This document shows, in pieces, positions 340 to 17,445 of a stretch of DNA of 17,445 nt. The position numbers and the translations under genes were made by a program. Position 1 is the first letter of the stretch. Each line of letters begins with the position of its first letter. This stretch comes from Candidatus Heimdallarchaeota archaeon (lineage in GTDB: Archaea; Asgardarchaeota; Heimdallarchaeia; Heimdallarchaeales; Heimdallarchaeaceae): assembly GCA_016840095.1 (NCBI GenBank), contig JAEOSZ010000085.1, positions 1 through 17,445 on the forward strand, in the 5' to 3' direction. Under the pieces are notes generated by a model, which saw only the letters and a list, made by a program, of their open reading frames with translations, did not search any database and had not been told where the DNA came from.

Positions 340-1722
340 CTAACTTGAATAATAAGGTTTGATAAAGGATCCATAACCTCTTTTAGCTAGAAATTCTCCA
401 TTCTTAAAAATTTCATTTCCTCTAACAATGGTTTGTTTTATTTTTCCTTTTAGATTCCATTCATCAAAAATAGTAACTTTTTGTTTTGTGTATAGGTTTT
501 TGTTCTTTACAACATATTCTTCTTTCATATCTACTATAATCAAATCAGCATCAGAATTTAATGAAATTGTTCCTTTTCTAGGATGTATTCCAAATCTCTT
601 TGCTTGATTCAGTGATGTTACTTCAGTAAATCTGTTCAAAGATAGTTTTCTTTTATTAACAGCATCCAGCATCAATGGAATCATTGTTTCCAGTCCTGGA
701 GTTCCAGATCCTACACCAAAAATACCTTTTTCACTTGAGCTAACATCCTTTTCTTCACAACTATAGGGTGAGTGATCAGTAGCAACCATATCTATGGTTC
801 CATCATTCAATGCTTTCCAAGCTGCTTCCACATGTTCTTTCGACCTTATTGGGGGGTCGGATTTTGCCCAAGAACCAATTTCAGCTGCTTCTTCTGATGT
901 TAGAAAGAGATGATGTGGAGTAATTTCGCAACTAACATCCCAACTTCTTTTCTTTGCTAATCTAATAAAATCAAAAGAATTTTTGGAGCTCATGTGAACA
1001 AGATTTAATTTTACTCCTGCTGAATTTGCTAAAACCATAGCTCGAAGACTTGCTTCATCTTCTGCTATTGTTGGACGAGAATCTGTATGTGCTTGAAAAT
1101 CATATTTTCCTAAAGACACAATTCTATTTATCTCACTATTGATTATTGAATCATTTTCCGCATGTATACAGCTTACTAAACCTACTTCAGCAATTTTAGA
1201 GAAGATTTGTAACAAGAATGAATCATTCTTTGCTGAAAGATCTTTAAGCTCATACATCTCCTCTGGGGCATCTAACATAAACGTCTTGAATGCTATAGCA
1301 CCCTTTGAAGCAAGCTCTTCTATAGTATCTATATTATTATTTCCTGCAGCACCAATTAAACCAAAATCAATGATACTCTTTTCTTTCATTGCTTTTAGCT
1401 GACTATCGAATGCTTCAAGAGCTGTTTGTCCCTCAATCCCCATTGGCATTTCTAAAAATGTAGTAATTCCCCCAGAAGAAGCTGCCTGAGTTCCTGTATA
1501 GAAATCCTCTCTATAAGAAAATTCTAAATCAAGAATGTGTGTATGAACATCTATCCCTCCAGGTAAAACAAGACGTTTATTAGCATCAATAGTTTTTTCT
1601 GCTTTTGGTAGAGTATTTGTCTTTCCTATTTTGACAATCTTTCCTTGATCGATACTCAAACCAGTTTCTATTAATTCATTACCGACAAACACTTTTCCAT
1701 TTATGATATTCAAATCAGCCAT
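340..1722 (-). CDS. Cyclic amidohydrolase (allantoinase / D-hydantoinase / dihydroorotase family)
   Basis: Motifs PGGIDVHTH, GGITT, AFKTFM (candidate carboxylated Lys), IHAEN, LVHMS, CEITPHHL, ATDHSP, ADLIIVD, TIVRG. Lacks the HxR Arg after DxHxH typical of dihydroorotases. A hydantoin racemase lies nearby, so allantoinase/hydantoinase is favoured. Confidence 0.88.
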   Translation of the reverse strand: MADLNIINGKVFVGNELIETGLSIDQGKIVKIGKTNTLPKAEKTIDANKRLVLPGGIDVHTHILDLEFSYREDFYTGTQAASSGGITTFLEMPMGIEGQTALEAFDSQLKAMKEKSIIDFGLIGAAGNNNIDTIEELASKGAIAFKTFMLDAPEEMYELKDLSAKNDSFLLQIFSKIAEVGLVSCIHAENDSIINSEINRIVSLGKYDFQAHTDSRPTIAEDEASLRAMVLANSAGVKLNLVHMSSKNSFDFIRLAKKRSWDVSCEITPHHLFLTSEEAAEIGSWAKSDPPIRSKEHVEAAWKALNDGTIDMVATDHSPYSCEEKDVSSSEKGIFGVGSGTPGLETMIPLMLDAVNKRKLSLNRFTEVTSLNQAKRFGIHPRKGTISLNSDADLIIVDMKEEYVVKNKNLYTKQKVTIFDEWNLKGKIKQTIVRGNEIFKNGEFLAKRGYGSFIKPYYSS

Positions 1723-1810
1723 ATTTTTCTATCCAACAACTTTTTTTGCAGTACTTTTATTTTACAGTAGAAGAATATATCTTTAAATCTTCGTGAGGAG
1801 TGTTTAAGAC

Positions 1811-3196
1811 ATGCAAGATAAGAACAATACTCGCATCTATTCAGGTGCAACTCCATCAGAAGTGATGGAAGATTTACAACCATTAGTTAATTTCCAGGAA
1901 GAAGGAATATCTGCGGACAAGCTTGACAAAATGCTAAAGGAAAGATTGCTTCCCCATTTGATGAAATATGACCATCCAAACTTCCTATCAATGTTCAATG
2001 ATTTTCCAGAAGAAGGAGCAAAAATTGGAGCAAAACTTGCACTAGAGTATAATCAAGGTGTTACTGATTGGTATGTATCACCCGGAGGAACTATGTTGGA
2101 AGAACTTTGTATCAAAGCTTTATGTTCTCTGTTTGGTTTAGAAGCTGGTTCTGATGGTACTTTCATGTATTCTGGAACTTATGCTAATCAAGAAGCCTTG
2201 TATCTTGCATTACATTGGAAAGCTGAACAAGAAGGGTTTGACTTCGCAAAAGAAGGATTAAAAGGATTTGAACATCCTGAAAGATTAGTTTTACTAACCT
2301 CTTTCGATGCTCATTTTTCACTCAAGCATGCTATTAGAATGCTTGGATTAGGTGAGAATAATCTCATCACTCTAAACGTTGATGCAAATAGGAGAATTGA
2401 TCTTCTTCAGTTACAAAAATCTGTTCTTCAGATTCAAGAAACACATGATGTATTTTGTGTTGTTGCAACAACAGGAACAACTTCAACCGGTTCAATAGAT
2501 AATGTGCTAGAAATCTCCAAACTATGCCAAAGAATTGGTGTTTGGTTACACGTTGATGGAGCTTATGGTTTGGCTTATTCTTTGGTTCCTGAATATAGAG
2601 ATAGGTTCTATGGCATTGAATTTGCTGATTCAGTTTCTTGGGATCCTCACAAACAATTTGGTATTCCTATACCTAATTCCATTTTATTTGTTAGAAGAAA
2701 AGAAGATTTCAATCGAATGGTTTTAAGAAGTGATTATATTTATAGGGAGGGTGAAAGTGTTCCTAGTCCTGGCTTGAAATCACCTCCTTCCACAAGACCT
2801 TTTTCAGCTTTATCTTTAGTTACTTCGATAAGATATCAAGGAATTTCAAAAGTCCTAGATAGATTAAGATCACCTGTTGAAGCAATAGAGGCAGCTTTCA
2901 ACTCTCTTAAAAACGATTCTGAAATCGAATTGTGTAATAGACCTGAAACTGGAATTCTCTGTTTTAGAATTAATAACAAAAAGATATCTGAAGACCAGAT
3001 GAATGATTTCCTAAAAGAAGTCTATGAAGAAGTAATTACTGAAGGTAAACATTCAATCTCATTTACTAAACTAGATTCTAAAGCAGTTTTAAGAATAGTT
3101 GCAATTTCACCAACTGATGCAGAAACTTTATTGAAAACCATTTCCTATGTAAAGAAGAAAGCAGAATTGGTTGCAGAGAGAGGTTTACAATTATGA
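1811..3196 (+). CDS. Group II pyridoxal-phosphate-dependent decarboxylase (DABA/glutamate/aromatic amino acid decarboxylase family)
   Basis: Motifs SGTYANQEAL, AHFSLKHA, VVATTGTTSTGSID, HVDGAYG, SVSWDPHK (PLP lysine). GAGGAG RBS at 1795-1800. Confidence 0.9.
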   Translation: MQDKNNTRIYSGATPSEVMEDLQPLVNFQEEGISADKLDKMLKERLLPHLMKYDHPNFLSMFNDFPEEGAKIGAKLALEYNQGVTDWYVSPGGTMLEELCIKALCSLFGLEAGSDGTFMYSGTYANQEALYLALHWKAEQEGFDFAKEGLKGFEHPERLVLLTSFDAHFSLKHAIRMLGLGENNLITLNVDANRRIDLLQLQKSVLQIQETHDVFCVVATTGTTSTGSIDNVLEISKLCQRIGVWLHVDGAYGLAYSLVPEYRDRFYGIEFADSVSWDPHKQFGIPIPNSILFVRRKEDFNRMVLRSDYIYREGESVPSPGLKSPPSTRPFSALSLVTSIRYQGISKVLDRLRSPVEAIEAAFNSLKNDSEIELCNRPETGILCFRINNKKISEDQMNDFLKEVYEEVITEGKHSISFTKLDSKAVLRIVAISPTDAETLLKTISYVKKKAELVAERGLQL

Positions 3197-3870
3197 AGAT
3201 ATTGATAATTAATCCAAATAGTGATCTGGAGATGACCTTAGCAATTCAAGAAACTGCAGGTTCATTTGTGGAGAAGAATATACAGGTAACTTGTATTCAA
3301 ACTCCAGGAGCACCGAAATTCATTGAAACTTATGAAGATCAGATAAAAGCAGCTCCTGGTATGATTAAGATTGTAAGAGAAAATGAAAAGGAATATGATG
3401 GTTTTATTATTGCATGTCATTGTGATCCAAATTTAGATGTGATCAAAGAGATAACAGTGAAACCAGTTGTTGGGATAGGTGAGGCTTCAATGAAGTTAGC
3501 ATCTATGCTAGGACACAGTTTCTCAGTAATATCCATGACAGAACAATCCATACCAAATAAGGAAGCTTTGATTCGAAAATATCATCTCCAGGATGTCTTA
3601 GCATCTGTTAGAGCTCCAACAGAACAACATAAGAATCTCAAAGAAGAAGAGAAATACTTGGAAACTGCTAAACTTGCAATCATTGAAGATAAAGCTGAAG
3701 TAATTGTATTAGGTTGCGCTGGAATGACAGGAGTGGATAAGAGATTGGAAAAAGAACTTGGAGTCCCAGTTCTTGATGGAGTTGTTAGTGCTCTCATTAT
3801 ATTAATTGGTTTGATAAAGCATAATCTTTCAATAAGTAAAATAAGAAGATATAGATCTTCAAAAAGTTAA
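3193..3870 (+). CDS. Hydantoin/allantoin racemase (Asp/Glu/hydantoin racemase family)
   Basis: Motifs ILIINPNS, IIACHCDP, PVVGIGEAS, IVLGCAGM, PVLDGV carry the two catalytic Cys. ATGA overlap with the decarboxylase stop suggests translational coupling. Confidence 0.9.
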   Translation: MKILIINPNSDLEMTLAIQETAGSFVEKNIQVTCIQTPGAPKFIETYEDQIKAAPGMIKIVRENEKEYDGFIIACHCDPNLDVIKEITVKPVVGIGEASMKLASMLGHSFSVISMTEQSIPNKEALIRKYHLQDVLASVRAPTEQHKNLKEEEKYLETAKLAIIEDKAEVIVLGCAGMTGVDKRLEKELGVPVLDGVVSALIILIGLIKHNLSISKIRRYRSSKS

Positions 3871-5247
3871 TCACTTCATACTATTTTCTATTTCTTCTAT
3901 TGATTCTATACAAATTTCAATTCCAGTTTCTGCCAGTTTTTTGGTGATAATTAATGGTGGAAGGAAGCGCAACACATTGTCATAATGACCACCTATTTCT
4001 ATAATCACTCCTCTTTTGAACATCTCATCTCTTATCATTGAGCACAATTTAGAGGATGGTTTCTTTGTTTCTTTATTTTCAACTATTTCAATACCTAACA
4101 TCAACCCTTTTCCTCTAACTTCACCTACTATCGAAGATGAACTCTCAAGTGTCCTCATTTCATTAAGCAAAAACTCTCCAAGCTCTTCAGCATAATTAGC
4201 AAGTTTGTTTTCTATCATAAAATTAATTGAAGCAGCTCCTGCGGCCATTGCACTTACATTTCCTCGAAAAGTACCTATATGAGCAGCTTTTTTCCAAACA
4301 TCCAAATCTTGTCTATATGCTATTGCTGAAAGAGGAAAACCTCCACCTAATGCTTTTGATAAAGTCATTATGTCAGGAGTAGCATTCGAATGTTCGGATG
4401 AGAAGAATTTTCCTGTTCTGCAGAATCCTGCTTGAATTTCATCAAACACTATTGGTACACCGTACTTATTACTTATTTCAGCTATTCTTTTAACAAAACT
4501 TTCATGAGGAACTATTGATCCACCTTCTCCTTGAATAGGTTCAATAATAGTCATAGCAGGATCTACTACTCCAGAATGAGGATCTTCCAATACATGTTCA
4601 TAATAATTTGCACTAGCTTCAGCGCATTCTTCAGCTGTGGTAGATTTGAATGGACATCTGTATGAATAAGCATAAGGAACAAAATGCACTTCTGGAATCA
4701 AAGGCATATAGTTTTTCTTCCAAAATTTACCTGAAGTCAGAGCTAAAGCCCCAGATGTCATCCCATGATATGCTCCTTCAAAAGCAATAATTCCATGTCT
4801 CTTTGTAATAGTTTTAGAGAGCTTTATTGCGCTTTCAACAGCATCAGAACCTGTTGGTCCTCCAAAAATTACTTTCGAATTGTTTCTTAAATTACCGGGT
4901 AAAATATCCTGAATTTTCTCAACTAAGTCGATTCTCATTTTAGTTGGAAAATCAAGTGTATGTGTAATTTGTTTTTGAACTTCTCTTATTTTTTCATCTA
5001 TATAGGGATTACAATGTCCTAAAGCAAGAACTCCTGCTCCTCCAAAAAAATCAATAAAGATGTTATCATCTGCATCTTTTATAGTTGCACCAAAACCTTG
5101 TTTGATGGCGATTGGAGAACCTTTAGGATATGAAACAGGACTACCTTCAAGTTTCTGTTGCAAGTTCAGTATCTCTTTTGATTTTATTCCTGGAAGTTCA
5201 CTCTTGATTAATGGGGCTTCTAAAAAACTCAACTCATCAAATTTCAT
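3871..5247 (-). CDS. Class III PLP aminotransferase, diaminobutyrate--2-oxoglutarate transaminase (Dat/EctB)-like or GABA aminotransferase-like
   Basis: Motifs DFFGGAGVLALGH, GPTGSDAVESAIK, AYHGMT, EPIQGEGG, DEIQAGFCRTG, SKALGGG (PLP lysine), HIGTFRGN, LRFLPPL. GPTG..AVE and GTFRGN are characteristic of the Dat/EctB subgroup. Confidence 0.88.
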   Translation of the reverse strand: MKFDELSFLEAPLIKSELPGIKSKEILNLQQKLEGSPVSYPKGSPIAIKQGFGATIKDADDNIFIDFFGGAGVLALGHCNPYIDEKIREVQKQITHTLDFPTKMRIDLVEKIQDILPGNLRNNSKVIFGGPTGSDAVESAIKLSKTITKRHGIIAFEGAYHGMTSGALALTSGKFWKKNYMPLIPEVHFVPYAYSYRCPFKSTTAEECAEASANYYEHVLEDPHSGVVDPAMTIIEPIQGEGGSIVPHESFVKRIAEISNKYGVPIVFDEIQAGFCRTGKFFSSEHSNATPDIMTLSKALGGGFPLSAIAYRQDLDVWKKAAHIGTFRGNVSAMAAGAASINFMIENKLANYAEELGEFLLNEMRTLESSSSIVGEVRGKGLMLGIEIVENKETKKPSSKLCSMIRDEMFKRGVIIEIGGHYDNVLRFLPPLIITKKLAETGIEICIESIEEIENSMK

Positions 5248-7627: not shown

Positions 7628-8584
7628 TTGCTCAAAGCCCAAAATATTTGTAAAACTTTCCAAACAAATAAAATCAAAGCACTTCAAGATTTCTCCTTAG
7701 AAATAGAAAAGGGAGAAATTATGGGGCTTCTGGGACCTAATGGGGCAGGAAAAACAACTTTTGTAAAAATTGCAGTAGGGGTATTGGCCAAAGATTCAGG
7801 TTCAATTTCAATTTTTGGCTATGATGGTGATAAGGACAGAAAAAAGATTTCAGAAAATATTGCATGGATTCCCCAAGAAGGAGTTCAGAAAATGCTTTAT
7901 CAAAAAACAGGTAGAGAGAACATTATCTATTATTCATGGATTAGAGGTCTTACACGAAAAGAAACAAATCTTAGAATAGATAAAATAATGGATCAAATGC
8001 TTATTAATAAAAAAGTAATAGATAAACCTTATAGGCTTATGAGTGGAGGTCAAAAACAATATGTCAATATCATGAATGGGTTGGTAATGAATGCAGATTT
8101 AATTTTTTGTGATGAAATTTCTGTGAGTATTGATCCTATAATTTCTAAAAATATCTATCTTTATCTTAAGGAAATTGTAGAAGAAGGCAAAACCGTTTTA
8201 CTAACCTCACAGAACATAGACGAGGTTGAAGATTTGTCTAATAGAGTTGCTTTAATTAACGAAGGCAAAATTATGACTGTTGACACTCCTAGAAAGATAT
8301 CTAGAAATATTCTCAAATATGAGATTATAGATTTGATTTTTGAAAGAAATGTAAGTGAAATACCCAAAATGAGTGAGTTTTGTAATGAACTTGAGACTCA
8401 CAAATTATTTCTTTCTGGTATTCAAGATAACAACAAACTAAGGGTTCAATGTAAAACTGCAAAAATCTTCTTAGCAGATATCTTACAGTTATTAGATAAA
8501 TACTCATTAAACCCAGCCATAGAAGCTGGAAAGGCCAACTTAAAAATGGCTGTTCAATTAATTAAGGAGGAGAATGAAGCTTGA
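7628..8584 (+). CDS. ABC-2/DrrA-like exporter ATP-binding subunit
   Basis: Walker A GPNGAGKTT, Q-loop WIPQE, signature MSGGQKQ, Walker B LIFCDE, switch LLTSQNIDE. TTG start with GAGGT RBS at 7617-7621. Confidence 0.93.
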   Translation: MLKAQNICKTFQTNKIKALQDFSLEIEKGEIMGLLGPNGAGKTTFVKIAVGVLAKDSGSISIFGYDGDKDRKKISENIAWIPQEGVQKMLYQKTGRENIIYYSWIRGLTRKETNLRIDKIMDQMLINKKVIDKPYRLMSGGQKQYVNIMNGLVMNADLIFCDEISVSIDPIISKNIYLYLKEIVEEGKTVLLTSQNIDEVEDLSNRVALINEGKIMTVDTPRKISRNILKYEIIDLIFERNVSEIPKMSEFCNELETHKLFLSGIQDNNKLRVQCKTAKIFLADILQLLDKYSLNPAIEAGKANLKMAVQLIKEENEA

Positions 8585-9420
8585 AAACTTTTTATGCTAA
8601 TTTTTGGAGAGAGGTAAGATATAATATTGGAAGAAAAGGTGTCTGGATTGGAAGAATTGCTAATGTATCTGTTTCTATTCTTACAGCTTTTGCGATGGGA
8701 GTAATTTATGCTTTTAGCTCAGATGCTCAAAATAATTTAGGCATTGGAAATGTAGGTTTGTTTTTATTAACAGGTTTTTTTATGCAGTATTTAGTTCTGA
8801 CTAGTGTAACTGTAGCACCCAACACATTTTGGGCTGATATTAGATACGGTTCATTAGAATTTGTGTTTTTCTGTGATTTCAGTATAACAGAATATATCTT
8901 TGGCATGTATTCTGCTCAATTTCTTTTTGATTTCATAATTTCAATACCTTTCTTCATCGTACTTGCAGTTCTAGCAGCTGTGCAATCAATTGCACCTATT
9001 GTGATTCTAATTTTCATGGCGTTTGTAATTCTATCATTCTTATGCCTATTCTCAGTATCAATGCTATTTTCATCATTATATGCTTTAAGCAAGCAATTCA
9101 TGGGGTATAGTAGAGTTCTATTCTCAATTGTATACTTCATATGTGGTGTATATTTCCCAGTCCAAGGATATCTTACACTTTTTAACGAAACTGGAGGGTG
9201 GATAGCTATTGCAATAGTTTCTATTTTTCCCTATACATATGTATTCGATTTAGCACGTAAAATTGTATTCGGAGCATCCTATGAGACGATATATCCATTA
9301 TGGTTAGAATTTTTGCTATTATTTGTCACATGTGCTATCCTCTATTTACTTTCACTTTGGATTTTTAGGAAAGGTTTAGCTAAACTAAAAAAGGAAGGAT
9401 TTGCGGGATACAGATATTAG
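8581..9420 (+). CDS. ABC-2 type exporter permease
   Basis: About 6 TM helices. Motifs DIRYGSLE, ICGVYFPV and FPYTYVFDLAR are typical of ABC-2 permeases. TTGA overlap with the ATPase stop; AAGGAGGA RBS upstream. Confidence 0.88.
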   Translation: MKTFYANFWREVRYNIGRKGVWIGRIANVSVSILTAFAMGVIYAFSSDAQNNLGIGNVGLFLLTGFFMQYLVLTSVTVAPNTFWADIRYGSLEFVFFCDFSITEYIFGMYSAQFLFDFIISIPFFIVLAVLAAVQSIAPIVILIFMAFVILSFLCLFSVSMLFSSLYALSKQFMGYSRVLFSIVYFICGVYFPVQGYLTLFNETGGWIAIAIVSIFPYTYVFDLARKIVFGASYETIYPLWLEFLLLFVTCAILYLLSLWIFRKGLAKLKKEGFAGYRY

Positions 9421-9493
9421 AAAAGGCAAGACAAGAATTAAATAATGAAAGGAAAACATTGGTACTAATACAAATATAATGAAGGGAGAAAAA

Positions 9494-10591
9494 ATGGATA
9501 AAGTAATTAATCAGGAAAAAAAAGAAAAGTTTCCTTATAAATTCGAATCCAAAGTTACTAAACAAGGTATAATTACTATTCCACATTCTATTACTCTAAA
9601 AGAAGGAAACTTCTACATCTTCGAATTTCATATAAAGAAGACACAGATGCATTATACTCAGATAAAGAAGATAAGAGGTACTGGCAATCGCAAATATATC
9701 TCATGTAGAATAAAGATGCCTTATCTGGAGAGAGAAGATGAAGTTACTGTAATTATTCTAAAAGAGTTTCAAGAGACAACAGAAAAATTCCTAAGAATAA
9801 ATGATTTTGAATATCCACTGCTTTCTAATGATACAAACAGATGCATGTTTCTATATAAGAATAGATCTAACAACATCATACTTACATCAGAAGAAGAAAC
9901 ACAATTTAAGGTAGAAAATCCAGATTTTGAAAGCACTGATTGGGTTATGGACATTTTTAAGCATCTAGATAATGTAGAGGATAAAGGGGAGGAGTTCTTT
10001 GACATTTTACGATTAAATCAATATTCAGTTATTCGATACTTTGGTAAGAAAAGAGAATTAAGTATTACAGAATTAACTGAAAATCCCACTGAAGATGCAA
10101 GGAAAGCTTATCAAACATTTCTCCCTTATTGTTTTTGCATACTAACAAAAATAAATCATTTGCAATTTCTACTCTCTCATCACATTAGAACGAGAATTAA
10201 GTTATTTCTGTCAAAATTTCAAAGTATATCTTCATATAAATCATTCATAATTAAAGAATTTTCAACCTATCTTCAAAGTGATATTTTCGAAAGGATTAAT
10301 GTCTCAGATCATACCTATACGAAAACAAATAGCTTAGATGATATTCGTTTCTGGTTCTATATTCCTTCTGAATATCAAGAGGTTGCTAAGAAAATACAAC
10401 TAGAATTCTTCTCTGGAAAAAAATACATTGAAATTGATAAGCTGATTGATTCTATAGTTTCAAAATCTGAAGATTTAGAAATAACAACGAGTATCTCAAA
10501 AGAAGCTATTGAATGGTTTAACAAACATCGTGTCTTGCAAGTTAAAACAAAAGATAAAAAGAAAGTACTGGAGAGATTTGGAATTGAATAA
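9494..10591 (+). CDS. Hypothetical protein with N-terminal AbrB/SpoVT/MazE-like swapped-hairpin motif(s), possible regulator
   Basis: SKVTKQGIITIP...LKEG matches the AbrB-type pattern, and IKKIRGTGNRKYISCRIKMPYLEREDEVTVII may be a second copy. Start ATG 9494 is preferred over 9479 because GGGAG lies at 9484-9488. Confidence 0.55.
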   Translation: MDKVINQEKKEKFPYKFESKVTKQGIITIPHSITLKEGNFYIFEFHIKKTQMHYTQIKKIRGTGNRKYISCRIKMPYLEREDEVTVIILKEFQETTEKFLRINDFEYPLLSNDTNRCMFLYKNRSNNIILTSEEETQFKVENPDFESTDWVMDIFKHLDNVEDKGEEFFDILRLNQYSVIRYFGKKRELSITELTENPTEDARKAYQTFLPYCFCILTKINHLQFLLSHHIRTRIKLFLSKFQSISSYKSFIIKEFSTYLQSDIFERINVSDHTYTKTNSLDDIRFWFYIPSEYQEVAKKIQLEFFSGKKYIEIDKLIDSIVSKSEDLEITTSISKEAIEWFNKHRVLQVKTKDKKKVLERFGIE

Positions 10592-11384
10592 GAAAGAACC
10601 GAAATCAAATGTTATCAGTTTCTACTCCTATAGAGGAGGGACTGGAAAGTCTACTTTATCATCTAATATAGTTAAAATTGCTTCTTTGAAACACAAAGCG
10701 ATACTTATTGATTTAGATCTTTACTCTCCTCAACTCAGCTATATCTTTGAAAAAGAAAATGAGCACTATATCAATGACTATTTTCATACTATGCTTTTTC
10801 AACCTGATAGTGGTTCAAAAAGAAAAATAGATTTATCAGATATAATTTGTAAAAGCAATTTTAAAAACCTGGATTTGATTTTGGCGAATCCTATCATTTC
10901 ATTATCTGATAAAACAATTTTACATGATGAAATCATCTCTAAAAGAATTTTCCCATGTATCCAACATATGGTAGAGATTTTACGAGCAGATTATGACTTG
11001 ATATTGATTGATTGTCCTGGAGAACTTAATTTCTATACTCTTAATGCAATAGCTGTTTCAGATCGAGCAGTAGGGGTATCTTTACCAACAAGAGCAAACA
11101 TTAAAGGTATGATAGAACTAATGAAAATTTTCAATGTTGCTCTACATGGAAAAATCTCTGATATTATACTTACTATGATTTCTACTAGGCCATCTCAAAG
11201 AAAAATTGAAACTTTAGAAAAATGGAAAATTGAGTTGAAAGATCACAATATATCTGATTTTATTTTCTTTTACTATTCAGAAAATATTGCTTATAGACAT
11301 CAATTTGAAGACGATTTCTTCTATCTTCCAGAGGAGGAAGAGTATAAACAACTTGAAGAATATCTACAAAAAATAACAGAGTAA
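10584..11384 (+). CDS. MinD/ParA-family P-loop ATPase
   Basis: VISFYSYRGGTGKST (deviant Walker A), ILIDLDLYSP, YDLILIDCPG. Probable start is TTG 10584, which overlaps the upstream TAA (TTGAATAA) and has GGAG at 10570-10573, rather than 10509. Confidence 0.85.
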   Translation: MNKKEPKSNVISFYSYRGGTGKSTLSSNIVKIASLKHKAILIDLDLYSPQLSYIFEKENEHYINDYFHTMLFQPDSGSKRKIDLSDIICKSNFKNLDLILANPIISLSDKTILHDEIISKRIFPCIQHMVEILRADYDLILIDCPGELNFYTLNAIAVSDRAVGVSLPTRANIKGMIELMKIFNVALHGKISDIILTMISTRPSQRKIETLEKWKIELKDHNISDFIFFYYSENIAYRHQFEDDFFYLPEEEEYKQLEEYLQKITE

Positions 11385-11394
11385 GTGAAATCTT

Positions 11395-12738
11395 GTGTCA
11401 GTGAAAATATTACTTTCATTGAAAAAAGCAAATGGATTATGGATATATTATAATCTATTGACTCAAACATTAGTTGAAACTTCTGTCTCTCCTGAGTTAA
11501 TTCATGATCAAGCACCAAGTAATATCCATAAAGATCTTTTCTTTGGGGAGAATATACAAGATCTTCTAGATTTCAATAACAACTTCTACAAGAAAACATT
11601 AGATGTTTTAGAAGAAGAAAAGGATTTAACTCAGTATTTCAACCAAAAATCACAAGTTATAATTGTTCTTTGGTACAGCTGCAATTTTGATTGCTCATAT
11701 TGTTTTCAGAAATACACATATTATGATTTCAAACCTGAAAAAGACATAATAGATGTTCAAAAGCTTAAACAATTTTTTACTACAAAATCAGATGGAGGAA
11801 AGCTCTCTCCTGATTCAGTTGTTCTTCTTGGAGGAGAACCACTTCTTAAGGGTAAGAAGTATAAAACTATTATCGAAGAAATTCTAGATTACTTATCTAG
11901 TGAATTTAAAGACCTAGAAATAAGTATTGTGACTAATGGTTATAATCTGAATTATTATATCCCTACATTCTTGAAATATAAAAACATAGATTGGATTTTC
12001 AATATAACTTTAGGAATTGATGAAAAACATCACAGTGAAGAACGAATTCTGAAAGCAGATAGAAGTGCAAACACAAGAAAAAGAATTTTAGAAAATATAG
12101 AAAAAATTTCAATTAATCTTCCAAAAAGCACAGTGTATATTAAACTAAATCTTGGAAAAGATTTCATAGAAGTAAAAAATGTAATCAATTTGATCAAGGG
12201 ATTGAAAAATAATGAGATAATAAGCAAGTTTGAAATAAGTCCTATCGAATCTCCAGAATATCATCAAGAGATAAATAACTCATTTATTGAATTGTCAAAA
12301 TCATTACTTCTTGAAGAATCTATAAGAAATAAGATTGACTTAAGGTATTCTCAGCATATCTTCAATATCATAAGAAAAGCGTTTATAGATAAAAGCGAAA
12401 CTGAAATTGAAGTACTACCCAAATGGTGTAATGCGATAGTATTTTCAACTAATTACGATTTATCTCCTCCATTCCAAATTCAACCTTGTGAGGATTTCCG
12501 TTATTATGAAATTGATGATAATCTGAGATTAAAAATAGAGTCTTCATTTCTAGAGAAATTCAATCAAAGAATTACCAATGTATGTGTTAATTGTCCTTTT
12601 CTAACATCTTGCTTGTCAAATCCTTGTAATATTGTAAAAAGAATTAATCAACCTCTTGAGAAATGCTATGGTCTTGAACGAAGTAATATTATAACAGCTT
12701 TATCTACAGTTCATGGAGCAAACCATGCAAAAAGTTAA
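11395..12738 (+). CDS. Radical SAM enzyme with C-terminal SPASM domain, putative peptide maturase
   Basis: CNFDCSYC (CxxxCxxC, 11680-11703), LLGGEPLL, IVTNG. C-terminal 7-Cys pattern C-x19-C...C-x2-C-x5-C-x4-C-x12-C (12427-12666). GTG start at 11395 or 11401. Confidence 0.9.
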   Translation: MSVKILLSLKKANGLWIYYNLLTQTLVETSVSPELIHDQAPSNIHKDLFFGENIQDLLDFNNNFYKKTLDVLEEEKDLTQYFNQKSQVIIVLWYSCNFDCSYCFQKYTYYDFKPEKDIIDVQKLKQFFTTKSDGGKLSPDSVVLLGGEPLLKGKKYKTIIEEILDYLSSEFKDLEISIVTNGYNLNYYIPTFLKYKNIDWIFNITLGIDEKHHSEERILKADRSANTRKRILENIEKISINLPKSTVYIKLNLGKDFIEVKNVINLIKGLKNNEIISKFEISPIESPEYHQEINNSFIELSKSLLLEESIRNKIDLRYSQHIFNIIRKAFIDKSETEIEVLPKWCNAIVFSTNYDLSPPFQIQPCEDFRYYEIDDNLRLKIESSFLEKFNQRITNVCVNCPFLTSCLSNPCNIVKRINQPLEKCYGLERSNIITALSTVHGANHAKS

Positions 12739-12743
12739 GTATG

Positions 12744-12764
12744 AACATAACTAGTTCTTATGTT
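12744..12764. repeat. Inverted repeat AACATAA-n7-TTATGTT (possible hairpin or operator)
   Basis: Perfect 7-bp arms directly after the radical SAM stop. AT-rich, so it could be chance. Confidence 0.3.
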
Positions 12765-12874
12765 TAAAAAATAAATATCCAAATCTTGAGTACTTTCACA
12801 ACTAGGAGGTTCACAAAATTATATACTCTTTCATTTACGGAATAAAGAATCACCCACTCAAACAAACAATTCTA

Positions 12875-14500
12875 ATGGAATCACATTTGTTTAGTGTTTA
12901 CACTGTGACTGACGAGGAATTAATTTCTGCAACTCAAAATTGGATAGCTTTAAGTGAAGAAATATCTTTGAATGACGAAGAAATTTTTACTCTTAAGTCA
13001 ATAAATAAAAGTTTGAAGACATTTCTTATTGATGATGACATCTCACAATTTGAGAGTACAGCACAAGAAGCACACCTAACAGGCTATCATAAATCAACAA
13101 TAGATATACTTCTATTCAAAGGAATTTTAGTTAATTCATTAGCTTTTTCAGGTACAACTAGGATATTTAAAATAGAAAATACAAGAGCTGTAGTTAACAA
13201 ACTCGAGGAAATTGAGACAAAGGACAATATCTATTACGAGTTACTTAAAGCATTGCTCTTATTCTATGAAGGACAAGAAAAAGAATCAATTCCTATTTTC
13301 CAAAAACTAAGGACACAACTTGATATGAATGATTGTTCTCCTTTAATAGTAGTTTATTATCTTCTGATAGGTATGTATCACAGAAATCCTAGTAAACAAA
13401 TAGTGATTCTTGAAGAGGGATTAAAGGGAAATTGTTTTTATTGGGAATTTGTTGTGAAGTATCTGGTTCATTTCTTTCATCGTGGTAAATATATTAAGAC
13501 TCAAGAACTTGCATTGGATTATTTAGAGGAAATGGAGAAAGATTTGGATGATTACATGAAGGGAATAAAATTGAGTATTCTTGATCAACTTATCAAATCT
13601 GCATTTCGATTAAATTTAAAATGTGATCTACAATTTTATTTGAGTGAGTATACTCAAACATTGGATAGTTTACCCTATGATGAATATGGAAATAAATACA
13701 ATTACCAGTTATTCAATAAGACAAATGAAATCCTCTTTAAAATCCATTTTAGTGAGAAAAAATTAACAGAAGAAGAGATTGAGAATTTCCTAAAATTTGG
13801 AGAAAATAGTTTCTTCAACATGCTTATGGCAACAGTAATATTAAATCCTATCATTAACAGTATGGTTCTAGAAAAAGAGTATGATAGAGCTTTTTACTAT
13901 ATTCAACAATTAGATAATGGTAAAGGGTACTCTAAATCTTCAGATAAGCTTATTTCATTCCTAGAGAGTTTTTACATCTCCGCTTTAATTGATAGAACTT
14001 TAAGATGGCAAAAATATAATATTCTGGAATATAATGGGTCACAAACAGAAATTGCTCTTAAATATCTAAAAGACTCCCAGATTCTACTTGATAAAGGGGA
14101 TGAATCTCTGAAAGTTTCAGCTCTTCTTCATGAAGTCAATTTAAGATTGAGAGCAGATTCAATCGACCAGCTTGAAGAAAGTTACATACTTGAGACTTTG
14201 AAGAGAGAAGGTTATGACTATGTACTTGCCTTAATGATTGCTTTAGTTTATTATATTAGTACTTACAATAAAGAACGGTATTATGAGATTAAATATGAGC
14301 TATTTACTAAATTGGAAGAATTTTCCGGATATAATTTTTACGAACAATTTAAACTTCAAGTGAATTCTTTATGCTCATATTTTGAAGTTAATTTATCAAT
14401 TGAAGTTGAATCAAAGAGAACTGTATTAGATTTTGATCTTATTCAAGATTATACTCAGTTTCTACAACATGAGATAAATAAAGTTTTAACAAGTAGCTAA
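12875..14500 (+). CDS. Hypothetical protein, probably alpha-helical repeat (TPR-like)
   Basis: 541-aa ORF rich in Leu/Tyr/Glu, with TPR-like segments (LLKALLLFYEGQEKESIPIFQK, FHRGKYIKTQELALDYL, LEKEYDRAFYYIQQL). No catalytic motif recognised. Confidence 0.6.
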   Translation: MESHLFSVYTVTDEELISATQNWIALSEEISLNDEEIFTLKSINKSLKTFLIDDDISQFESTAQEAHLTGYHKSTIDILLFKGILVNSLAFSGTTRIFKIENTRAVVNKLEEIETKDNIYYELLKALLLFYEGQEKESIPIFQKLRTQLDMNDCSPLIVVYYLLIGMYHRNPSKQIVILEEGLKGNCFYWEFVVKYLVHFFHRGKYIKTQELALDYLEEMEKDLDDYMKGIKLSILDQLIKSAFRLNLKCDLQFYLSEYTQTLDSLPYDEYGNKYNYQLFNKTNEILFKIHFSEKKLTEEEIENFLKFGENSFFNMLMATVILNPIINSMVLEKEYDRAFYYIQQLDNGKGYSKSSDKLISFLESFYISALIDRTLRWQKYNILEYNGSQTEIALKYLKDSQILLDKGDESLKVSALLHEVNLRLRADSIDQLEESYILETLKREGYDYVLALMIALVYYISTYNKERYYEIKYELFTKLEEFSGYNFYEQFKLQVNSLCSYFEVNLSIEVESKRTVLDFDLIQDYTQFLQHEINKVLTSS

Positions 14501-14539
14501 TTTTATTCAATCTTTAAACTGTTAGAAAAACTTTCGTTT

Positions 14540-14569
14540 TCTACAAAAGTATAAAAACTAGAAAGAACA
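14540..14569 (+). promoter_or_regulatory. BRE-TATA-like promoter of precursor gene 1 (repeat copy 1)
   Basis: TCTACAAAAGTATAAAAACTAGAAAGAACA, 26/30 identical to 14859-14888. Confidence 0.6.
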
Positions 14570-14593
14570 TAGTACCTACAAGAGGACATGCTT

Positions 14594-14797
14594 ATGAGAA
14601 AAGAAGAGAAAATCTCACTTGATCAAACTTCATTCAAGATTATTGCAAAAACCAATATAGACTGGGGAAATAATGTAGGTATAAATGAAGAACTTCCTCC
14701 AGATGATGATAATTATTATCCAACTTGCACTACTGCAGTAATGCGAGTTTCTGCTAGATCTGCTTCATGTAGTGTAATAACGTTAGGAAGAGGGTAG
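14594..14797 (+). CDS. Putative RiPP precursor peptide A1 (67 aa)
   Basis: MRKEEKISLDQTSFKIIAKTNIDWGNNVGINEELPPDDDNYYPTCTTAVMRVSARSASCSVITLGRG. The second ATG (14594) sits 7 nt after GAGGA and aligns without gaps to the start of the paralog. Downstream of the rSAM/SPASM and ABC exporter genes. Confidence 0.8.
   Translation: MRKEEKISLDQTSFKIIAKTNIDWGNNVGINEELPPDDDNYYPTCTTAVMRVSARSASCSVITLGRG
14630..14669 (+). repeat. 40-nt perfect direct repeat, copy 1 (encodes SFKIIAKTNIDWG)
   Basis: TCATTCAAGATTATTGCAAAAACCAATATAGACTGGGGAA is identical to 14947-14986 (offset 317). Confidence 0.95.
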
Positions 14798-14858
14798 GAC
14801 AACTGATTTTCCTTTTGGTTATGCTTGGTTCTTTAACTTTCTGAAATGACATACTTTG

Positions 14859-14888
14859 TCTGCAAAAGTATATAAATTAGAAAAAACA
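14859..14888 (+). promoter_or_regulatory. BRE-TATA-like promoter of precursor gene 2 (repeat copy 2)
   Basis: TCTGCAAAAGTATATAAATTAGAAAAAACA, a purine-rich element followed by TATATAAA. Confidence 0.6.
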
Positions 14889-14910
14889 AATGTATAAAAG
14901 TGGTTAAACA

Positions 14911-15108
14911 ATGGCTAAAAAAGAGAACATCACTCAAGACCAAATATCATTCAAGATTATTGCAAAAACCAATATAGACTGGGGAATCAATTCAAGTATA
15001 AATGCTGTCGAACCTACAATACCTGATCCCCCTGAATTCAACTGTACTACATCAGTAAATCGAATATCTTCAAGATCTGGTACATGTAGCGTATTATCGT
15101 TAGGATAG
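14911..15108 (+). CDS. Putative RiPP precursor peptide A2 (65 aa)
   Basis: MAKKENITQDQISFKIIAKTNIDWGINSSINAVEPTIPDPPEFNCTTSVNRISSRSGTCSVLSLG. Gapless alignment with A1 gives 37/65 identical residues (manual count). Confidence 0.8.
   Translation: MAKKENITQDQISFKIIAKTNIDWGINSSINAVEPTIPDPPEFNCTTSVNRISSRSGTCSVLSLG
14947..14986 (+). repeat. 40-nt perfect direct repeat, copy 2
   Basis: Identical to 14630-14669. Confidence 0.95.
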
Positions 15109-15520
15109 GGTTAAGAAAAGTATTTTTCTCTGCCTTACGATATATTGTTTTATATATTCTATTTTACCATTCTTTGCTTAAATAAGTGTTAAATCCTCTA
15201 ATAATAGTTGTAAACACAATTTTTCAAGAAATAAGTTTTTTTAAAATGAATTCTATATTTCAGGATTCTTTGAAGCACCTTTTTCTCTCTTTTTAAATAT
15301 ATATAAAGATAAGGCAAAAATCATTTAATAACCACAATTAATCAAAGAAATCACTTATTTGAGAGAAAATGTGTTGTTTTTATAAAACCAAAATCAGTTA
15401 CTTAAATTTGAGTAGAGGTTGTTAAACATCCTATTAATAAGAATATTCAACCAATTAAAAGATGATGTTTCTTATTAGAGGTTCGATTTGAACTAGGATA
15501 AAATTAATAAAGGTGAAAAA

Positions 15521-17445
15521 ATGGAAAAATCGAAAAAATTAACCTTATTTGCTACAATGTTCATTACAGTTTTTTTAGTGACTAATGTTGCACATGTAAT
15601 GAGTTTTAGTTTTGATCCTGGACCAGGAGATCCTCCACCAGATGATCCTCCACCACCACCTCCTCAAGATACAACTAAACCAACAGTTTCTATCACAAGT
15701 CCGTCAATAGGAGATGACTTAACAGGAGTAGTCACGTTTCAAGCTTCGGCGAGTGACAATGTTGCCATTCTTGTTGTAACCTTTAGTATTAATGGACAAT
15801 CTTTAGGTTCTGACTCTTCATCACCATACAAAGTGACTTTTGATACAATAAATTATCGAGAAGGATTCTATACTCTAGAAGCTACTGCAATTGATACTAG
15901 TTATAACTCTAGAAAGCATTCAATAAATGTTCAAATAACTAGGGCTAAAGGATTAACTATTTGGGAAGACAACTTCGAATATGTTGGAGATCAAGCTGAA
16001 GGTTACGATCATATGTGGACAATGAAATATAATGATTGGTATGGTAACGATTATCATGAAACCTATAGCGATGGATACAAAGGATATGTTAGTGAAACTA
16101 ATGGTCATGTTTCAACAAATGCGCTAGTATATACTAAATTTGACATGAGTAAATGGACAGGAGAAGGTGATGTTACACTTGAAGTAAAATTCCGAGCACA
16201 AAGCAATTACAATGGACCTTCCAGTGTAACCAATTTCCGTATAGGCATTAGAAGATGGGGAGAAACAACACCTCTCTGGCAACAAACGAAAATGTTTACT
16301 TATTCTAAAGATTCTGGATGGCAAATCTATTCTTACCTAATTACTGGTCAAGAATTGCTTAACTATGGAGGAAAATATTGCTTATACTGGGGCTACAGAG
16401 ATGCTTGGTCAAGTTATTGGGGTCAAAAAGTATCTATTGACTATATTCAAATATTTGGTGATGCGTTCCCAGGTGATACTTTACAGCGTAAAAATGGAGC
16501 AACTTTTTCTAATGGTGTTCATGATATTTTTATCTTTCATCAGCAAGCTGATGACGATAACCCTGATTCAGATCATGTTTTTGTTAGTACTGCTACAAAA
16601 ATAGATGGAGCGGATTCTCTGGGAATATGCAATACGCAAAGTCCTCACATTGAAGCAGGAATACAAGTTGCTATGGATCCACATGAAGAAGATAGTAGTT
16701 TAAGGTTTAACCGAATTGATGGAATTAGGATAAAGATTGCATTGAAGAATATGAAAGATAATACCTATGTAGAACTAAATACTTATCAAAAAGAGACTTG
16801 GTTAAACGAAGAAGCTACCATAACTGGTGGTACTGATGTAGATTATGATGCTACCTGGGGAACGCTTTCAGCTGTAGGTGAAACTATGTGTGCAGCTGGA
16901 GGATTAATTGCACTTGCTTTAGGTCCTGAAACAGTAGGAGCAGCTGCAGTATTAGGTTTGGCATTAGCAGCAATCGGAGGAGTCCTATGTATGGTTTCAG
17001 CAATTGGATCTGCCATCACAGACTCTGTTTTAGAAAGTGATCAAACAATAATATCTATGTACACTGAATCTGAACAGATTAGTCCTGAAATAACTAAACA
17101 TTATGCTGTGTCAGATTTGGATTATAAAGCTGTTTGTGCTGGGACTACTGATTTGAGATACCTGTTTGGCATCACACCTTATCTACCAGATGATTCATGG
17201 TATAGAGTAGAAGTAACATATGAGCTTAGACTGAAATCTTGCAGATATTTAAGACACACTCAACACCTCTGGGAACCTGAACCTTATACAGAATACTTTG
17301 ATTTATTCAATATGGATAATATCAGAATAGTTGATACAGGTTCTGAAAATATAGAAGAAGATGTACCTGTAACTTTCAGTGATGGAAATTACTTGAGTTA
17401 TCCAACTATAAATGGAGAAGGATGGTATGCTGTTGAAGTAGAATA
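15521..17445 (+). CDS. Large secreted protein (partial, >641 aa): signal peptide, Pro/Asp linker, bacterial Ig-like (Big) domain, beta-sandwich domain, internal hydrophobic hairpin
   Basis: AGGTGA RBS at 15511-15516. Manual translation is open to the window end: MEKSKKLTLFATMFITVFLVTNVAHVMS-FSFDPGPGDPPPDDPPPPPPQ-DTTKPTVSITSP...ASASDNVAI..VTFSINGQSLGSDSSSPYKVTFDT...YTLEATAIDTSYN (Ig-like Big domain, 15668-15940), then WEDNFE...SGWQ...VSIDYIQI. Confidence 0.85.
   Translation, partial: MEKSKKLTLFATMFITVFLVTNVAHVMSFSFDPGPGDPPPDDPPPPPPQDTTKPTVSITSPSIGDDLTGVVTFQASASDNVAILVVTFSINGQSLGSDSSSPYKVTFDTINYREGFYTLEATAIDTSYNSRKHSINVQITRAKGLTIWEDNFEYVGDQAEGYDHMWTMKYNDWYGNDYHETYSDGYKGYVSETNGHVSTNALVYTKFDMSKWTGEGDVTLEVKFRAQSNYNGPSSVTNFRIGIRRWGETTPLWQQTKMFTYSKDSGWQIYSYLITGQELLNYGGKYCLYWGYRDAWSSYWGQKVSIDYIQIFGDAFPGDTLQRKNGATFSNGVHDIFIFHQQADDDNPDSDHVFVSTATKIDGADSLGICNTQSPHIEAGIQVAMDPHEEDSSLRFNRIDGIRIKIALKNMKDNTYVELNTYQKETWLNEEATITGGTDVDYDATWGTLSAVGETMCAAGGLIALALGPETVGAAAVLGLALAAIGGVLCMVSAIGSAITDSVLESDQTIISMYTESEQISPEITKHYAVSDLDYKAVCAGTTDLRYLFGITPYLPDDSWYRVEVTYELRLKSCRYLRHTQHLWEPEPYTEYFDLFNMDNIRIVDTGSENIEEDVPVTFSDGNYLSYPTINGEGWYAVEVE
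15614..15664 (+). repeat. Low-complexity Pro/Asp-coding repeat (DPGPGDPPPDDPPPPPP)
   Basis: GATCCTCCACCA occurs twice, followed by a CCA/CCT run. Confidence 0.8.

Follow-up and report, generated by a model that had tools for sequence, protein, structure and literature searches.

In the radical S-adenosylmethionine (rSAM)/SPASM enzymes CteB, PapB, and Tte1186, an open site on auxiliary cluster I (AuxI) binds the substrate sulfur (PMC10177961); the auxiliary clusters of anSME, SuiB, and PqqE are fully ligated (PMC6231123). The archaeal enzyme CrpC makes ranthionine links (PMC13692751), and clusters for peptides that are synthesized ribosomally and modified post-translationally (RiPPs) of Asgard archaea appear in the literature as bulk counts in genomes (PMC12144867, PMC12016038). 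Aloposons carry four conserved upstream genes, including one for a MinD/ParA ATPase (PMC8813620). The window analyzed here, a stretch of 17,445 nucleotides that makes up contig JAEOSZ010000085.1 (C76) of the "Candidatus Heimdallarchaeota" assembly GCA_016840095.1, contains an eight-gene locus that touches on all of these systems. It is real, rare, and coherent, and reads as a radical SAM/SPASM RiPP variant whose host is an Asgard archaeon, whose precursor motif is new, and which includes a module related to aloposons.

The locus is best read as a RiPP biosynthetic island that makes an enzyme-crosslinked, exported peptide, probably a thioether RiPP (probability of roughly 0.65). An initial annotation had proposed a RiPP cluster from the combination of an rSAM/SPASM enzyme, short peptides, and an exporter. 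Each testable part of that proposal held, with the qualifications on the twin peptides, the motifs, and the accessory genes that are given below. No paper on this cluster, or on any Asgard maturase-precursor pair, was found in a literature search that left out most subscription journals, and two aloposon papers showed no link to RiPPs.

Organization and conservation of the locus

Eight co-oriented open reading frames (ORFs) on the + strand span positions 7628-15108, as seen in the ORF list and in the sequence. This agrees with the initial annotation, as do the gene overlaps TTGA at 8581-8584 and TTGAATAA at 10584-10591; the cluster end, which it had placed at 15114, is corrected to 15108.

7628..8584, + strand: DrrA-like ABC transporter ATPase, putatively for export or self-protection (PF00005, E = 2e-26; best NCBIfam match TIGR01188 drrA, below cut-off; 49-60% identity to relatives).
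8581..9420, + strand: ABC-2 type permease (PF01061, E = 1.2e-5, slightly below cut-off; 59-66% identity to relatives).
9479..10591, + strand: 370-aa protein with an AbrB-like barrel, a longin-fold domain, and a winged helix (predicted structure, fold matches, HHalign).
10584..11384, + strand: MinD/ParA-family ATPase with the motif RGGTGKS, in which Arg replaces the signature Lys (PF13614, E = 2e-20; trees; motif table).
11395..12738, + strand: rSAM maturase with a predicted N-terminal RiPP recognition element (RRE), CxxxCxxC, and a seven-Cys SPASM domain (PF04055, 44.4 bits against a cut-off of 29.5).
12818..14500, + strand: all-helical tetratricopeptide repeat (TPR)-like solenoid of ~560 aa (probable ATT start at 12818; the first ATG, at 12875, gives an ORF of 541 aa).
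14511..14569, + strand: element ahead of A1 that contains a TATA-like box (second copy before A2 at 14830-14888, 73% alike).
14588..14797, + strand: candidate precursor peptide A1 (69 aa), with a leader strand, a Pro/Asp linker, and the core C-x7-S-x-R-S-x2-C.
14911..15108, + strand: candidate precursor peptide A2 (65 aa), with a predicted pairing between its residues 11-25 and residues 23-31 of the rSAM enzyme.
15521..17445, + strand: secreted protein with a Big_7 domain and an internal hydrophobic hairpin (PF17957; the gene finishes on contig C16).

Profile searches assign the 370-aa and 541-aa proteins to no family. For the six products other than the ABC ATPase, this genome encodes no close second copy, the A1/A2 pair excepted.

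The AbrB-like, MinD/ParA, and rSAM genes are consecutive in 8 further loci, several of which are close kin. Loci L011, L012, L013, L015, and L016 share the gene order ABC, permease, AbrB-like, MinD, rSAM, peptide, TPR; in L017, the ABC gene comes after the TPR gene. Directly behind the rSAM gene, a Cys-containing ORF of 57-73 codons is found in all 6 relatives with sequence there. The initial annotation had made its case depend on whether close rSAM homologues co-occur with such peptides; each close orthologue with downstream sequence adjoins a related Cys-peptide gene. Identity to the proteins of genome G005 is 38% for the rSAM enzyme, 34% for the TPR protein, and 29% for the peptide, the fastest to diverge, versus 65% for MinD and 66% for the permease.

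Six relatives of the rSAM enzyme are close (213-335 bits, 30-39% identity), after which scores fall to 79 bits. Its profile matches 4 of the 400 Asgard genomes searched, all in the same genus, plus a few contigs, and every occurrence lies within this cassette; these genomes are incomplete, so that non-detection there means "not found," not "absent." Orthologues have a patchy distribution within the genus (4 of 25 genomes), and a metagenome scan returned one distant locus.

Radical SAM enzyme

The PF04055 match and the CxxxCxxC motif place this protein among the radical SAM enzymes. Ten Cys residues are invariant in 7 of 7 orthologues, namely C96/100/103 and C345/365/397/400/406/411/424. The latter seven align with C344/362/413 and C400/403/409/432 of CteB, which are the three AuxI and four AuxII ligands, and CteB (PDB 5WGG) is also the closest solved relative (E = 5.7e-11).

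The enzyme has an N-terminal extension of 90 residues. A model of its complex with A2 scores 0.63, compared to 0.00 for the best of 3 controls, and clears the mark applied, which is reached by 58 of 80 solved pairs and by 2 of 110 mismatched pairs. Separate runs share at least 38% of contacts, with a pLDDT score (predicted local distance difference test) of 39-51 for the peptide. In the model, residues 11-25 of A2 lie antiparallel to residues 23-31 of the enzyme, which form the third N-terminal strand. The CteA leader extends the RRE sheet of CteB on the same N-terminal strand (PMC6231123), and the outcome may partly reflect likeness to the CteA-CteB structure. The model supports binding of the A2 leader by the rSAM N terminus, and the peptide is very probably the substrate of the enzyme.

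A different target for the enzyme, whether a cofactor or a protein such as the TPR or secreted one, with the small ORFs being incidental, is highly unlikely. Some observations speak for it: CrpC, an RRE-SPASM enzyme from an archaeon, acts by crosslinking a protein (PMC13692751), two orthologues bear the Joint Genome Institute (JGI) label "sulfatase maturation enzyme AslB," and many of the next-nearest rSAM enzymes (60-79 bits) adjoin thioredoxin-reductase fusions and no tested peptide. A peptide substrate therefore does not follow from distant kinship on its own. However, the peptide gene is found in 6 of 6 relatives, the rSAM-A2 model beats its controls, and none of the 4 Cys residues of the TPR protein is invariant. 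All NCBIfam maturase families score far below cut-off, including TIGR04463 (59.6 versus 525 bits) and the sulfatase maturase family TIGR03942 (37.5 versus 349 bits). An anaerobic sulfatase maturase, the alternative named in the initial annotation, is rejected on the latter score, on the presence of seven rather than eight Cys residues, on the N-terminal extension, and on the lack of a sulfatase among the annotated neighbours.

The nearest of the next-nearest enzymes (P0008) is encoded near a C39-peptidase exporter. Loci L023, L111, L113, and L115 represent a large RRE-rSAM-SPASM family of bacterial type that has seven Cys residues; its genes precede one for a thioredoxin-thioredoxin-reductase fusion and often follow a methyltransferase gene.

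Precursor peptides

A1 and A2 are 57% identical and share an identical 13-residue block, in line with the paralogy noted in the initial annotation. Their tails, described there as rich in Cys, Ser, and Thr, are indeed rich in Ser and Thr, but each has only two Cys residues, 13 residues apart. The core C-x7-S-x-R-[ST]-x2-C is common to A1, A2, and the peptides of 4 of the 6 relatives, and S-x-R-[ST] is kept in 6 of 8 peptides. All peptides contain an alternating hydrophobic leader strand (FKIIAK, FEVIIR, LEVLIR, IDVIMS, LKIVVL). The search motifs suggested earlier, FKIIAKTNIDWG and CTT-x11-CSV, are not conserved among relatives.

Of the 12,483 ORFs of the genome, a profile built from the relatives' peptides alone places A2 at the top (E = 5.5e-7) and A1 next (E = 0.16), indicating relatedness beyond chance. 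The full peptide profile has strong matches solely at rSAM loci in 47 genomes. The peptides match no NCBIfam family, as the initial annotation had held for known precursor families, and gave one weak, unrelated profile match only; a search of cluster representatives with A1 returned only A2 and two repeat-protein artefacts.

The twin precursors of the initial annotation are real here, although relatives carry a single peptide gene, located after the rSAM gene and before the TPR gene. This genome has nothing in that slot; its precursors come after the TPR gene, within a tandem duplication of ~318 bp that includes the upstream element (repeat families D1 and D2, with spacings of 317 and 319). 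The twin arrangement is therefore local to this genome, as is the position of the peptide genes. The A1 and A2 genes share a 40-nt exact identity (14630-14669 and 14947-14986). Gene conversion in this block is unsupported, with 13 of 13 identical codons compared to 20 of 24 elsewhere (p ~0.09).

If the peptide is the substrate, a thioether product is the probable one, by analogy with the enzymes that it resembles. The same RiPP logic with other chemistry, such as a C-O or C-C link at the conserved Ser, Arg, or Thr, or epimerization, with the two Cys residues closing a 15-residue disulfide ring, seems unlikely. The fixed C-x13-C spacing would suit a disulfide, S-x-R-[ST] is the motif kept in most peptides, and the SPASM Cys spacing is divergent (x19, x4, x12). 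On the other hand, seven rather than eight ligands favour a site for a substrate thiol (PMC6231123, PMC10177961), the L013 peptide retains its first Cys though the second is lost, and the cores contain no conserved aromatic residue for a cyclophane or a Lys-Trp link.

AbrB-longin-winged-helix protein and MinD/ParA ATPase

The model of the 370-aa protein (pLDDT of 70.6, predicted TM-score [pTM] of 0.49) consists of three domains, with moderate Z values for their matches. Residues 16-101 form an AbrB-like barrel (Z = 10.5, root mean square deviation [rmsd] of 3.0, 83 aligned residues, 2GLW), residues 118-274 have a longin fold (Z = 9.2, rmsd of 3.2, 131 aligned residues, Lokiarchaeota 8YQG), and residues 280-370 form a winged helix (Z = 9.3, rmsd of 3.0, 82 aligned residues). 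The label "AbrB-like" of the initial annotation is thus apt for the barrel, and the full protein has an AbrB-longin-winged-helix-turn-helix (wHTH) architecture. An Atlas fold search returned Asgard and DENN/C9orf72 longin proteins, all with TM-scores below 0.6; the Atlas feature search gave no match, and the alignment search for this protein nothing new. Longins of the FLCN/SMCR8 type that act as GTPase-activating proteins (GAPs) have a GP motif between strands 1 and 2 and an arginine finger (PMC12290439). Such a role is rejected here: the alignment contains no GP motif, and the invariant Arg186 lies within strand 4.

The profile of this protein has a weak match (E = 2.4e-5) in a 3.08-Mb genome of the same family (G027), which HHalign confirms (92%, E = 6.7e-7, 320 columns). 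The homologue overlaps a MinD/ParA gene upstream of twin genes encoding 4,223 and 5,557 aa, which is the published aloposon layout. The widened profile adds three copies in a 3.33-Mb genome, all of them followed by a MinD gene and giant genes. Across the 400 Asgard genomes, full-length matches are confined to the RiPP loci and these four aloposon elements. Aloposons have a divergent winged-helix gene ahead of the pair, and its homologue occupies this position in L014 and L017 as well (E = 1e-9 to 1e-11). In trees with the hosts' other MinD/ParA proteins, the ATPases of RiPP loci and aloposons fall on one side of a branch with support of 96/96, or 99/98 after long branches are dropped. Placement of the RiPP ATPases with one host MinD/ParA clade is rejected by the approximately unbiased (AU) test (p = 0.004). 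The signature Lys is missing from RiPP-locus and aloposon ATPases and also from some host paralogues. Homology thus identifies the pair as a module shared with aloposons, and the accessory genes that had looked like atypical orphans in the initial annotation are homologues of aloposon front-end genes.

The upstream genes shared with aloposons number two in the window and three in L014 and L017; the text of the aloposon paper does not name its four. No giant genes of 3,000-6,000 aa are found on C76 or in the first 25 kb of the joined C16, and ARAGORN detects no tRNA gene on the window, on C16, or on the eight relative loci. The locus is therefore not itself an aloposon.

The pair might instead belong to an aloposon-like mobile element, present or past, as its partition module, with the RiPP genes as cargo and the pair playing no role in making or sensing the peptide. 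This option, compatible with the RiPP reading, is somewhat improbable. The sole other context of the pair is aloposons, and the cluster is a low-GC island (29.8% versus 33.3 +/- 1.0% in 7.5-kb windows of the genome, within the lowest 0.2% of windows) that is patchy in the genus and has unrelated flanks in its carriers. Against it, the pair is intact and lies within the operon, where its genes overlap or directly neighbour those for the ABC and rSAM proteins, and it adjoins the rSAM gene in both gene orders (L012-type and L017-type). Further, the ParA signature Lys is replaced, and C76 and the joined C16 show no integrase in addition to lacking the tRNA and giant genes. Regulation rather than partition is given an even chance.

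Genome G007 contains a second, divergent copy of the cluster (L014, on G007:C20), nearly identical in layout to L017 and with the divergent wHTH gene in front. A 106-aa ORF at L109:6505-6825 (G030:C1:2516504-2516824) matches the winged-helix end alone of the AbrB-longin-wHTH family (E = 2e-10) and is a possible remnant. Just upstream of the cluster in L012 (3689-5437) is a gene for a NosD/beta-helix secreted protein, which resembles a 460-aa gene product encoded between MinD and the giants in two aloposons (E = 1e-13), perhaps through a common domain only.

TPR-like and secreted proteins

Homology of the TPR protein begins at about position 12818, where an ATT lies 8 nt after GGAGG and 19 codons before the first ATG; relatives' genes begin with TTG or ATG at the matching place, which points to a probable non-ATG start. 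The piece 11548-13697, assembled from one DNA run that may be the source sample, shows zero differences; therefore, the missing ATG is not an obvious sequencing error. The gene is kept in all 6 relatives with sequence there (in L013, the first codons only).

The TPR model (pLDDT of 81, pTM of 0.81) has 28 helices. Its fold matches are generic (Z = 15 to 17), the Atlas feature search gave generic TPR rows with low recognition, and the alignment search gave nothing new. The modeled solenoid is a possible peptide-binding scaffold or receptor. The protein diverges as fast as the enzyme and faster than MinD and the permease, which would fit contact with a variable peptide.

The Big_7 protein (~700 aa) shows 36% identity to the product of the gene at the same place in L012, where its Gly/Ala-rich hydrophobic hairpin is also kept. 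A homologue is found in L016 and, judging from the first 55 residues, probably in L015; G007 alone among the 47 genomes has a full-length match. The protein does not match the searched giant proteins of G027. In L011, Cas genes take the place of the secreted protein after the cluster.

These two proteins could belong to a peptide-signalling circuit, in which an exported pheromone would bind the TPR protein as in RRNPP systems and act through the longin/ATPase regulator on the downstream secreted protein. The peptide receptors Rap (Z = 16.4) and NprR (Z = 16.3) are among the top structural ties, the TPR protein diverges rapidly, and after the cluster, the window, L012, L016, and probably L015 encode a secreted protein. 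Nevertheless, eukaryotic scaffolds reach Z = 17.3, the TPR protein contains no DNA-binding domain, and the cluster encodes no importer, leaving such a circuit rather doubtful.

Proposed pathway

In the thioether RiPP reading, the predicted RRE at the N terminus of the rSAM enzyme would bind the leader strand of the precursor, and the open AuxI site, expected from the CteB/PapB-like ligation, would hold a core Cys. One or two Cys-to-carbon thioether bridges would be formed in the C-x7-S-x-R-[ST]-x2-C core, and a protease encoded outside the cluster would cut off the leader. The ABC-2 pair would export the product or protect the cell from it, and the fast-diverging TPR solenoid probably binds the peptide. 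The AbrB-longin-wHTH protein and MinD/ParA would most likely control exported cargo, in this case the peptide operon, as a DNA-binding regulator switched by ATP.

Several observations weigh against this reading. With the SPASM profile TIGR04085, scores reach 14-20 bits, short of the cut-off of 27, no profile matches an RRE in the rSAM N terminus, and the next-nearest enzymes have the reductase-fusion context described above. Among the peptides, the second Cys is lost in L013, L017 has C-x11-C without the S-x-R motif, and no acceptor residue is conserved at a fixed distance from the Cys. The cluster contains no protease gene. Finally, placement of the RiPP ATPases with the other host clade is borderline (AU p = 0.051), in a tree with long branches.

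A broader proposal, which is unlikely, holds that in Heimdallarchaeaceae the aloposon front end (wHTH, AbrB-longin-wHTH, and Lys-less MinD/ParA) is a portable unit, driven by ATP, that controls exported cargo. In this locus, it would be connected via the TPR receptor to a new class of rSAM-crosslinked peptides, and eukaryote-type folds would make up part of the resulting Asgard circuit for signalling or competition.

Genomic setting

The host belongs to a Heimdallarchaeia genus related to "Candidatus Heimdallarchaeum," which bears out the archaeal, possibly Asgard, origin surmised in the initial annotation; two single-contig genomes, of 3,081,793 and 3,326,783 bases, are from the same family. 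The locus is covered by contigs of three DNA sequencing runs from one study of marine sediment metagenomes, and no RNA run is listed as containing it. C76 overlaps C16, and the joined contig completes the secreted gene (window:15521-17445 plus C16:1-311), followed by ordinary host genes. About 1.4 kb after this gene, C16:1746-3983 encodes a 745-aa secreted protein with a YLDGDNNL motif, presumably that of clostripain (C11) peptidases; this protein is a possible candidate for the leader protease. Elsewhere in this genome, C160:469-15273 encodes three tandem secreted proteins of ~1,610 aa each.

The left flank (340-5247) contains genes for an amidohydrolase, a pyridoxal phosphate (PLP)-dependent decarboxylase, an Asp/Glu/hydantoin racemase, and a class III aminotransferase, which are not seen at the relatives' loci. 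The flanks of other carriers include CRISPR-Cas and HicAB genes. In G005, L011:11234-14352 has Cas8b-like and Cas7 (DevR) genes after the cluster, then short virus-like ORFs on the opposite strand; in G007, HicAB and other small toxin-antitoxin-like genes are found upstream of the cluster (L012:542-2334). PADLOC returned generic ATPase and viperin-fold matches only, and a sigma-70 promoter scan gave matches at chance level.

Comparison with known systems

The locus shares with CteB/CteA (the SCIFF ranthipeptide system; 5WGG), PapB/PapA, and Tte1186 the RRE-rSAM-SPASM layout (with the RRE predicted here), seven auxiliary Cys residues in a 3+4 arrangement, a leader predicted to extend the RRE sheet, and an adjoining Cys-containing precursor. 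Unlike any of these, it is found in an Asgard host, has altered SPASM spacing, and includes an ABC-2 exporter, a TPR solenoid, and a module of the aloposon type. SCIFF peptides have six Cys in ~45 residues, compared to two here (TIGR03974, 33.5 versus 425 bits). Freyrasin, the PapB product, has repeated CX3D, which occurs here once only, in L011 (NF047865, 63.6 versus 340 bits). The conserved aromatic three-residue core motif of the substrates of the cyclophane maturases YhhB and FxsB is not found here (37 versus 445 and 26.5 versus 370 bits). CrpC/CrpA of Methanococcus voltae (PMC13692751) is also archaeal, with an RRE-rSAM-SPASM enzyme, and its family, TIGR04463, is among the top three NCBIfam matches of the enzyme; however, the CrpC substrate is a large Cys-repeat protein, and no exporter or aloposon module has been described for it. 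The core motif is thus unlike those of the known families compared, and the locus offers an enzyme and two natural variants of its putative substrate, which lend themselves to expression in Escherichia coli.

The RRNPP receptors Rap and NprR also have a TPR superhelix encoded beside a small exported peptide, whereas the match here is generic and shows no HTH or Spo0F-binding domain. With the aloposons and HeimV2 of "Candidatus Heimdallarchaeum" (PMC8813620), the locus shares AbrB-longin-wHTH and MinD/ParA genes that adjoin each other in the same order, ATPases that group together, the homologous divergent wHTH gene before the pair in L014 and L017, and exported products encoded downstream. It differs in lacking the twin giant genes, the tRNA site, and the PD-(D/E)XK gene; its cargo is a RiPP operon, and the proteins are 13-28% identical. 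The locus is therefore a second, small context for the unexplained aloposon front-end genes, in which the target promoter and cargo can be guessed and regulation can be tested against partition. The pairing of a longin fold with a MinD/ParA ATPase, rather than with a small GTPase, would bear on the use of such modules in the lineage closest to eukaryotes.

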